IMG/VR virus record: IMGVR_UViG_3300009500_000011
Coordinates: 104,585 to 168,584 of that record
Source of the DNA: a virus
Taxonomy: Duplodnaviria; Heunggongvirae; Uroviricota; Caudoviricetes
Reading direction: 5' to 3' (one strand)
Length of the DNA stretch: 64,000 nt
Below are positions 6,606 through 8,041 of the stretch, one piece after another (position 1 is the first letter of the stretch; the number at the start of each line of letters is the position of its first letter). Made by a program: the position numbers and the translations under genes. The notes below the pieces were generated by a model. It had not been told where the DNA came from. It ran no database searches and saw nothing but the letters and a program-made list of their open reading frames with translations.

Positions 6606-6983
6606 GTGAGAACATTTGACGACGTAAGTCCAGAAAAACATAAAGAAATATCTATAAAAGTTTTAAAATATTGGTTAAAAAACATTTATAAGATGGATGG
6701 TTTATCAACTCCGTCTAATGGTGTTATCAAGCAAGAAGATATTTTATTGCAATCTCAACAACTAGGTAATGTTTTTTGTTTAAAATTAGATATTACTGCT
6801 GCAATTGATACGTTACCACTTCGCTTAAAAAAAATTGTTTATCTTCATTATATAATTGGTTTCCCGGTTAGTAAAATTTGTTTAATGTTAGGGTTTAAAT
6901 TTCGTGTTGACCTTTATAGAAGACTTGACGAATGCTTTGAAATAATGTATGATTTTTTAGGACCTAATTGGTTACGTTCTTAA
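6606..6983 (+). CDS. sigma-70 region-4-like HTH protein
   Basis: GTG start. The segment LPLRLKKIVYLHYIIGFPVSKICLMLG...YRRL resembles sigma region 4.2 HTH. No region 2 is present. Confidence 0.5.
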   Translation: MRTFDDVSPEKHKEISIKVLKYWLKNIYKMDGLSTPSNGVIKQEDILLQSQQLGNVFCLKLDITAAIDTLPLRLKKIVYLHYIIGFPVSKICLMLGFKFRVDLYRRLDECFEIMYDFLGPNWLRS

Positions 6984-6994
6984 TAAGAATCAAT

Positions 6995-7546
6995 ATGGAA
7001 AATCTTTTAAAATCAGCAAAAAATATAGGATGTATTGGGACTAAGGATGATTTAGACGAGATTAGAATTAAAACTTGTCTTTTGATTGGTTATTGGATAG
7101 CAAAACAAAATAAGTTTGTTCATAGTGGAAACGCTAAAGGTTGTGATAATTTGTATGCAACTGGAGCAAATAATGTTAATCCATCTTTGGTTCACTTATA
7201 TTTAAGTGATAATAAGCATAATTCTAAATTCATAGTAGATGGAAATATTTTACATTATCAAGAAGATTTTCCTGATTGGTCTGGAATTGCTGAAATGTAT
7301 CATCCGCGATACAATTTCTTGCCGAAATATGCACAAAAACTGTTTAATCGTAATGCTGGAATTGTTCTTGCTTCGGATTTAGTTATCGCTATGCCAAGTA
7401 GATTAAAGTCTTGGGGTGGTGGAACAGGACATGGAATGAAGATAGCCAAAGGTCTTGGTATCCCAGTTATTAATTTGAGCCGAGAAGAAGAAAGAGAAGA
7501 AATTATTAAATTTATATTAAATGATAGCGACGTTTTTTCGTTGTAA
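6995..7546 (+). CDS. DprA/SLOG-like Rossmann-fold protein
   Basis: SGNAKGCDNLYATGA resembles the DprA SG.A.G.D motif. Later GGGTGHG. Start trimmed to ATG (MENLLK). Confidence 0.5.
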   Translation: MENLLKSAKNIGCIGTKDDLDEIRIKTCLLIGYWIAKQNKFVHSGNAKGCDNLYATGANNVNPSLVHLYLSDNKHNSKFIVDGNILHYQEDFPDWSGIAEMYHPRYNFLPKYAQKLFNRNAGIVLASDLVIAMPSRLKSWGGGTGHGMKIAKGLGIPVINLSREEEREEIIKFILNDSDVFSL

Positions 7547-7561
7547 ACAAGATGGTGATTT

Positions 7562-8041
7562 ATGGAAATTATAGAAACTACTACTTCCGAAAGCGCAAAC
7601 CCACTTATAATAGATGAATTAGACTCAAAGACTCAGGAAATGGTTGAAGAAATTATTGCAAAGGAACCTCAACAACCCTTGCATGTTGTTTCAGAGATTC
7701 CAATAACTATGGATAATTTTGATTTATTAAAGAAAAAATATCGTCCATTAATGTGGAGATATATTCGTTTGGTGCATAATATGCATAATAAATCTGTTGA
7801 ATTTGATGATTTAGAACAAGAAGCAGATTGGGCATTATGGAATTCAATTAAAAATTTTGATGATACTAGAAATGTATTTTTTCCTGTTTATTTAGGTAAA
7901 GCTGTGCTAAATCGCTTATTATGTTATTGTCGAAATTACTTACCTCATTTCTATAAAAAAGACCCCGAAAAAGAAGGTAAGTTTAAGCGTGTTAAAGTTA
8001 ATGTTGATACTTTAGACGACCCAAATACTTATAATTTTTAA
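7562..8041 (+). CDS. sigma-70 region-2-like protein
   Basis: DDLEQEADWALWNSIKNFDDTRNVFFPVYLGKAVLNRL matches the sigma region 2.1-2.4 pattern (DL.QE....L...I..FD......F..Y). No region 4 is present. Confidence 0.55.
   Translation: MEIIETTTSESANPLIIDELDSKTQEMVEEIIAKEPQQPLHVVSEIPITMDNFDLLKKKYRPLMWRYIRLVHNMHNKSVEFDDLEQEADWALWNSIKNFDDTRNVFFPVYLGKAVLNRLLCYCRNYLPHFYKKDPEKEGKFKRVKVNVDTLDDPNTYNF

Follow-up and report, generated by a model that had tools for sequence, protein, structure and literature searches.

Two short genes of an uncultured huge phage encode, on separate polypeptides, a sigma-70 region 4 (sigma4) domain and a sigma-70 region 2 (sigma2) domain. The genes, here called A and C, lie on a 64,000-nucleotide stretch of Caudoviricetes DNA (positions 104,585 to 168,584 of IMG/VR record IMGVR_UViG_3300009500_000011), the whole of which we refer to as the window. 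The sigma4 gene A comes first and the sigma2 gene C second; between them lies gene B, for a DprA/SLOG-like protein, and a small gene D follows (Table 1). Both sigma-like reading frames had been picked out in an initial annotation made from the sequence alone, and both are real. We read A and C as a split sigma of the phage, the two halves of a minimal, extracytoplasmic function (ECF)-like factor of the sigma-70 family that consists of sigma2 and sigma4. This is a tentative proposal, for which the grounds for belief and for doubt come close to balancing, with doubt slightly ahead.

Two single-domain sigma proteins in a conserved gene order

Which parts of a sigma factor do the two proteins carry? 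ORF C matches the Pfam domain Sigma70_r2 with E=2.6e-7 (30.8 bits, above the cut-off of 24 bits), and all 45 of the 45 matches of its family profile among PDB sequences are sigma factors. The family comprises 27 clusters of 95-204 amino acids, and region 2, the sole region assigned to ORF C in the initial annotation, is the only Pfam domain found in them. The protein begins with an acidic, disordered N-terminus (residues 1-48), continues with the sigma2 core (49-126) and ends in a near-invariant tail of 33 residues (127-159) with a predicted beta-hairpin. Within the core, DLEQEA (83-88) occupies what we take to be the place of the core-binding motif DLIQEG of sigma70, and F107 and Y110 are presumably equivalent to F427 and Y430 of sigma70; an alignment with SigE agrees with both assignments. 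Residues F107, Y110, N117, C123 and R124 of regions 2.3-2.4 are invariant across the family, which suggests that DNA-facing residues are conserved, beyond those needed for core binding alone.

The acidic N-terminus of C (window 7562-7705) carries a net charge of -9. In lineages without a SLOG gene the acidic extension measures about 75 residues, with a net charge of -17 (L011:6428-6650; L numbers denote the loci fetched for comparison). Such a segment is reminiscent of auto-inhibitory acidic regions, for instance sigma region 1.1.

ORF A matches Sigma70_r4_2 over residues 62-96 with E=8.8e-4 and 19.3 bits, under the cut-off of 25.7 bits. The same domain is matched independently by 18 of the 28 members of the A family (E<0.01; best 1.1e-10), and the earlier assignment of A to region 4 only can be retained; one further kind of match, to DUF1492, was obtained with a single family member (E=2.1e-5). 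The predicted monomer structure has the sigma4 fold, with a long 4.1-like helix (residues 43-68) followed by a helix-turn-helix (about 72-118), in which the recognition helix is basic and R100 and R105 are kept. The part of A that is not sigma-like consists of two N-terminal helices, and its residues from about 1 to 36 are highly conserved without matching any sigma domain. Aligned with region 4 of E. coli sigma70 by hhalign, A gave no significant score, as is expected of an ECF-type r4_2 domain.

What does A resemble among viral proteins? Its fold neighbours are proteins of 120-160 amino acids labelled 'Sigma-70 region 4', DUF1492 or 'transcriptional activator', and relatives of A match PHROG 36 and 248 (regulator/activator), while no NCBIfam match to ArpU or RinA was found. 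A search of 1.84 billion representative proteins with the A profile returned only 16 relatives, 15 of them 58-170 amino acids long. The sixteenth has 2477 amino acids and aligns in 10 stretches with the N-terminal, non-sigma portion of the profile; no full-length sigma was identified among the 16.

The two domains are thus divided between two protein families, neither of which ever contains the other's sigma domain or includes a fused relative. A single polypeptide with sigma2 N-terminal to sigma4 is not what we find: the sigma4 and sigma2 proteins are encoded separately within one operon, in the reverse order and with a gene between them. The initial annotation had stated this order and had also named the separating gene correctly, since ORF B matches Pfam LDcluster4 (SLOG cluster 4) with E=7.8e-7 (29.3 bits; cut-off 26.3) and the DprA-like PHROG 768 with E=2e-23.

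Could the split be an artefact, left by a single sigma gene that was pseudogenised or mis-assembled? One lineage (L017/L018) does show a one-nucleotide frameshift inside A. The order of sigma4 and sigma2, however, reverses that of any intact sigma, which a mere frameshift or stop codon in such a gene could not bring about. Moreover, independent assemblies of many samples show both reading frames uninterrupted and strongly conserved, and an unrelated gene lies between A and C. We consider such an origin extremely improbable.

The frameshift itself is seen in two independent assemblies, L017 (4016-4450) and L018. Compared with L020:2247-2621, the homologue of A in these loci has lost one nucleotide from a run of five T (GATTTTTAC to GATTTTAC). 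The deletion disrupts the recognition helix, and the conserved C-terminus is still encoded in the shifted frame. It may reflect an error of homopolymer sequencing, inactivation in the very recent past, or frameshifting.

Profiles for each of A, C and D were run over every fetched locus to define how firmly A and C are linked. Ten divergent lineages, in which the identity of both proteins falls to about 40%, have A a short distance upstream of C: the window with L006-8, L003-5, L009, L011, L015, L016, L017/18/20, L021/22, L023 and L024. The SLOG gene separates the pair in eight of the ten. It is missing from L011 and L021/22, where A and C overlap by 14 nucleotides, an arrangement that suggests translational coupling. 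Because A and C remain adjacent, and indeed overlap, without the SLOG gene, B is dispensable, and what is conserved as a unit is the pair of A and C. The identities of the two proteins run parallel across lineages (A/C 70/62, 55/57, 56/51 and 42/42%). In both proteins conservation is highest outside the canonical sigma domains, at residues 3-36 of A and 127-152 of C, a pattern that would be expected of new protein-protein interfaces.

Joint or independent action of A and C

How might two such proteins work? A and C would be co-transcribed from the replication and nucleotide-metabolism (early/middle) region and would load jointly onto the host core RNA polymerase. The conserved DLxQE motif of C would hold it to the beta-prime clamp helices, and its F107 and Y110 would serve to recognise and melt a -10-like element. 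A would occupy the beta flap tip, with its helix-turn-helix reading a -35-like element, and the outcome would be a host polymerase redirected to middle or late promoters of the phage. Residues 1-36 of A and 127-159 of C may make up for the absent covalent linker, be it as an interface between the two proteins or as an additional one with the polymerase. D might serve as an accessory factor or regulator, and B would be dispensable.

A more specific version of this proposal, possible but speculative, describes A-C as a non-covalent heterodimeric sigma of huge phages. A new interface, formed by the invariant N-terminal segment of A with the invariant beta-hairpin tail of C, would stand in for the sigma3/3.2 linker. 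The pair would have arisen when a solo sigma4 activator of the Ltr type recruited a sigma2-only partner, and its sigma4-first order would be convergent with that of Bacillus sigO-rsoA.

Several observations weigh against joint action. The L001/L002 lineage (a contig of 312,871 bp, ERZ25039491 contig_51073) retains the SLOG gene, C and D, and has in the slot of A a gene for a complete sigma of 270 amino acids (L001:4638-5450), which matches PHROG 351 with E=1.9e-23 and regions 2 and 4 weakly. No A homologue was found when the flanks were searched within 6 kb on either side. The Ltr superfamily of phage late activators includes LtrA, which consists of Sigma70_r4 only, LtrB, which is a DUF1492 protein, RinA and ArpU, and the slot between RuvC and HNH/terminase genes is the classic position of an Ltr late activator. 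P0033, a distant relative of A in a small phage (L013), lies in exactly this slot, with no C-like gene nearby, and the distant relatives of A look like solo late activators of the Ltr type. Finally, T4 gp55 is a sigma2-only protein that functions without a sigma4 homologue (PMC7892883). The claim of a two-subunit sigma, as first put forward, meets a divided record: the linkage of A and C, their overlap and their mutually exclusive domains speak for it, and the lineage without A nearby and the solo relatives of A speak against it. We also considered whether A could be a remnant of the full sigma of L001 and rejected the idea, as the two show no profile similarity.

Are A and C, then, merely independent neighbours? 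This is the main rival to a split sigma. C would be a minimal sigma of the gp55 type, active without a sigma4 partner and perhaps assisted by D or a different co-activator, whose promoters contain a -10-like element only, and A would be an Ltr-type (LtrA/DUF1492-like) sigma4 activator that works with the host sigma-A holoenzyme at one or more promoters of its own. The persistence of C and D without A in L001/L002, the solo sigma4 and activator proteins among the fold neighbours of A, the regulator/activator PHROG matches of its relatives and the Ltr-like placement of P0033 are all in keeping with such a division, and Ltr proteins are sufficient for late transcription (PMC3753634). Independence does not, however, readily explain why A and C stay linked in ten lineages and overlap once the spacer is lost, nor why A here lies within a replication and nucleotide-metabolism block instead of beside the terminase or late operon. 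We regard independent action, with these roles for C and A, as rather unlikely. Were it correct, the locus would be an ordinary cluster of phage transcription factors.

The initial annotation had raised the possibility of a second promoter class, middle or late promoters distinct from the host-like TTGACA/TATAAT promoters in front of the RNA genes. Sites of the form TTGACA-N17-TATAAT do occur, for example at 16303 and 16510, before the tRNA array, and at 10648 and 58046. To this extent the host-like sites are present, but sigma70-consensus sites are overall no more numerous than in shuffled sequence. Among 47 intergenic regions, k-mer enrichment yielded TTGACAA and words resembling ribosome-binding sites only, and a list of all TAnAAT boxes in the window revealed no alternative upstream element. 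Motif discovery failed to bear out the second class: no bipartite or other non-host motif that could be cognate to A and C turned up in the window, where late promoters could not be sampled for want of clear structural genes. This, too, counts against a split sigma.

The failure to find a target promoter in the window would also fit a role in host shut-off. C would act as a decoy that competes with the host sigma for the beta-prime clamp helices, and A would separately engage the beta flap or sequester partners of host sigma region 4, neither of them directing initiation. C retains the core-binding DLxQE motif and has the acidic N-terminus likened above to auto-inhibitory regions. Against a decoy stands the invariance of regions 2.3-2.4 of C, which makes this reading less likely, and A has likewise kept its basic recognition helix. 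Late genes would, furthermore, still have to be transcribed, and no RNA polymerase subunit of the phage was recognised, either within the 64 kb of the window or in the flanks that were fetched. On these grounds we think a decoy function improbable.

Relation to known two-part factors and late activators

The closest architecture to A-C is that of SigO (sigma4) and RsoA (sigma2) of Bacillus subtilis, separate small proteins encoded in one operon that are both needed for initiation (PMC8103513, PMC7826278). The initial annotation had pointed to this system, and the likeness extends to gene order: the Bacillus operon is named yvrI-yvrHa (sigO-rsoA), with the sigma4 protein listed first (PMC8103513). 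Unlike the cellular SigO-RsoA, which responds to acid stress, A-C is encoded by a phage and its function is putative. C has 159 amino acids, compared with about 9 kDa for RsoA; a SLOG gene is usually inserted between A and C, and a conserved D follows downstream. No NCBIfam match named after SigO or RsoA was obtained at E<1, and the likeness described here is one of architecture.

In T4 late transcription, gp55 is the sigma2-only specificity protein and gp33 occupies the place of sigma4 on the beta flap; the two have been called split sigma factors (PMC13627669, PMC7892883). The T4 system, in which the sliding clamp gp45 acts as activator, resembles the proposed A-C pair in that a phage-encoded sigma2-only protein is combined with a second small protein. 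However, gp33 is structurally unrelated to sigma region 4 and on its own does not bind DNA (PMC7892883), whereas A has a predicted sigma4 fold and would not be a co-activator of the gp33 kind. C, for its part, is nearer to cellular sigma domain 2 than to gp55. D was examined as a possible gp33 analogue and rejected: it gave only generic coiled coils in the PDB, no match to gp33 and no PHROG match.

A shares with the Ltr superfamily its small size (about 125-170 amino acids) and its stand-alone sigma4-type domain, and the fold neighbours and weak family matches of A are these very proteins. Ltr genes are sited immediately upstream of terS and the late operon. A, in contrast, lies between the gene for deoxynucleoside monophosphate (dNMP) kinase and the SLOG gene, and only the distant relative in L013 occupies the Ltr site. 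Ltr is described as the sole phage factor needed for late expression (PMC3753634), whereas the A of huge phages is tied to a gene for a sigma2-only protein.

Are there other precedents in phages? Surveys of jumbo phages have noted 'minimal' sigma factors together with gp33 in the T4-like ones (PMC7824862). SPO1 gp33/gp34 was considered as a two-subunit precedent and set aside, because the SPO1 gp33 is currently regarded as an inhibitor that depends on sigma-A (PMC13401047). A published phage pair of true sigma2 and sigma4 homologues was not found in our incomplete coverage of the literature, which is weak evidence that none exists.

If A and C do form one factor, they would be the first viral split sigma whose halves are true homologues of sigma2 and sigma4. 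Natural split sigmas would then reach beyond the single Bacillus case and the non-homologous gp55/gp33 of T4 to a whole clade of huge phages, and would offer an evolutionary bridge from solo sigma4 late activators (Ltr) to complete sigma factors. The pair would also bear on an older suggestion made for jumbo phages, according to which the first assembly of polymerase-recruiting factors is mirrored in minimal one-domain sigma-like proteins (PMC7824862). For synthetic biology, it could provide a compact, orthogonal two-part sigma for AND-gate control of transcription.

Neighbouring genes, leader and genomic setting

Table 1. Features of the A-D gene cluster, in window coordinates.
Feature	Coordinates	Strand	Description
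Intergenic leader upstream of A	6514..6605	+	TATAAT box, then AU-rich 10-bp hairpin with U-run
ORF A	6606..6983	+	125 amino acids, GTG start; stand-alone sigma-70 region 4 (sigma4)
ORF B	6995..7546	+	SLOG/DprA-like; ATG 6995 probable start
ORF C	7562..8041	+	159 amino acids; stand-alone sigma-70 region 2 (sigma2)
ORF D	8046..8411	+	121 amino acids, acidic (pI 4.4) coiled-coil protein

A, B, C and D are closely packed on one strand, with gaps of 4-15 nucleotides. The SLOG domain of B is Rossmann-like. The start called by the program for this gene was TTG 6968; its relatives, called as proteins of 178-185 amino acids, begin at the position of ATG 6995. The D profile finds matches downstream of C in L001, L003, L006-9, L011, L017, L021, L023 and L024. 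D adjoins C directly in most lineages, and other genes intervene in L017/L019 and L024. We regard it as a candidate accessory factor or regulator.

The leader of A contains a TATAAT box at 6533-6538 (CTATAAT in relatives), listed as GTAACA-17-TATAAT, and then a hairpin with U-run at about 6542-6573 (fold energy -16.4 kcal/mol, z=-2.35). A -10-like box right after the stop codon of the dNMP kinase gene is kept in six lineages (the window, L003, L009, L011, L015 and L016). A hairpin follows the (C)TATAAT box on its 3' side in the window, L003, L009 and L015, with the U-run in the window. The segment 6533-6573 may be either a promoter whose leader is structured or a terminator that follows a -10-like box by chance; no RNA families were found in 6480-8100.

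Metagenomic contigs of 274,834 bp (ERZ25039479 contig_29692) and 168,584 bp encode proteins near-identical to those of the window, from which we conclude that the window belongs to the genome of a huge phage not yet cultured. Its G+C content is low, at about 32%; it carries nearly all of its genes on the plus strand and includes 32 tRNA genes. The gene set is one of replication, nucleotide metabolism and RNA repair: primase, class II-like ribonucleotide reductase (RNR), AAA ATPase, dNMP kinase, Rnl1-type RNA ligase, Thg1, PhoH, RlaP and Ro60. No sliding clamp gene was identified within the window. It holds no additional sigma either, as a phmmer search with the L001 sigma, together with the A and C profiles, matched only A and C. 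A DNA similarity search with 5800-9100 gave no nucleotide match to isolated phages. Against the same phages, tblastn returned nothing for ORF A and a single weak match for ORF C, in a Vibrio jumbo phage. The C profile had no match in a scan of IMG/VR; in a scan of JGI metagenomes we found two further syntenic loci, together with three unrelated sigma factors of high-GC bacteria.

Several other features of the window were recorded. The Rnl1-type RNA ligase, the Thg1-like tRNA-His guanylyltransferase, RlaP and Ro60 (11631-14197, 31183-32001 and 45439-47205) make up a dense set for RNA repair and tRNA maintenance beside the 32 tRNAs. A BCS1-like AAA ATPase is encoded at 32322-33611 and a flotillin/SPFH protein at 55186-56619. 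Two very large reading frames, 37311-40886 (1191 amino acids) and 41543-44878 (1111 amino acids), match nothing in Pfam or PHROG at E<0.001. In the close relatives L006/L007, RNR has 1137 amino acids with an intein/LAGLIDADG insert and PhoH has 584 with a Hint-domain insert; the window versions (RNR, 1733-4195, 820 amino acids; PhoH, 14350-15051, 233 amino acids) are free of inserts.

A tRNA-like element on the plus strand at 44941-45014, which a local search matched to Rfam tRNA with 32 bits (E=8e-5) and which ARAGORN did not call, lies in the 560-nucleotide gap immediately upstream of the Ro60/TROVE gene (45439-47205). YrlA Y RNAs, the partners of bacterial Ro60, contain a tRNA-like module, and for this reason the element may be a phage gene for a Y-RNA-like transcript. 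At 18948-19021, also on the plus strand, ARAGORN calls a tRNA with the four-base anticodon 'atcg' and no assigned amino acid, which scores only 35 bits with Rfam. We may be dealing with a tRNA of the frameshift-suppressor kind, or else with a degenerate copy or a miscall.
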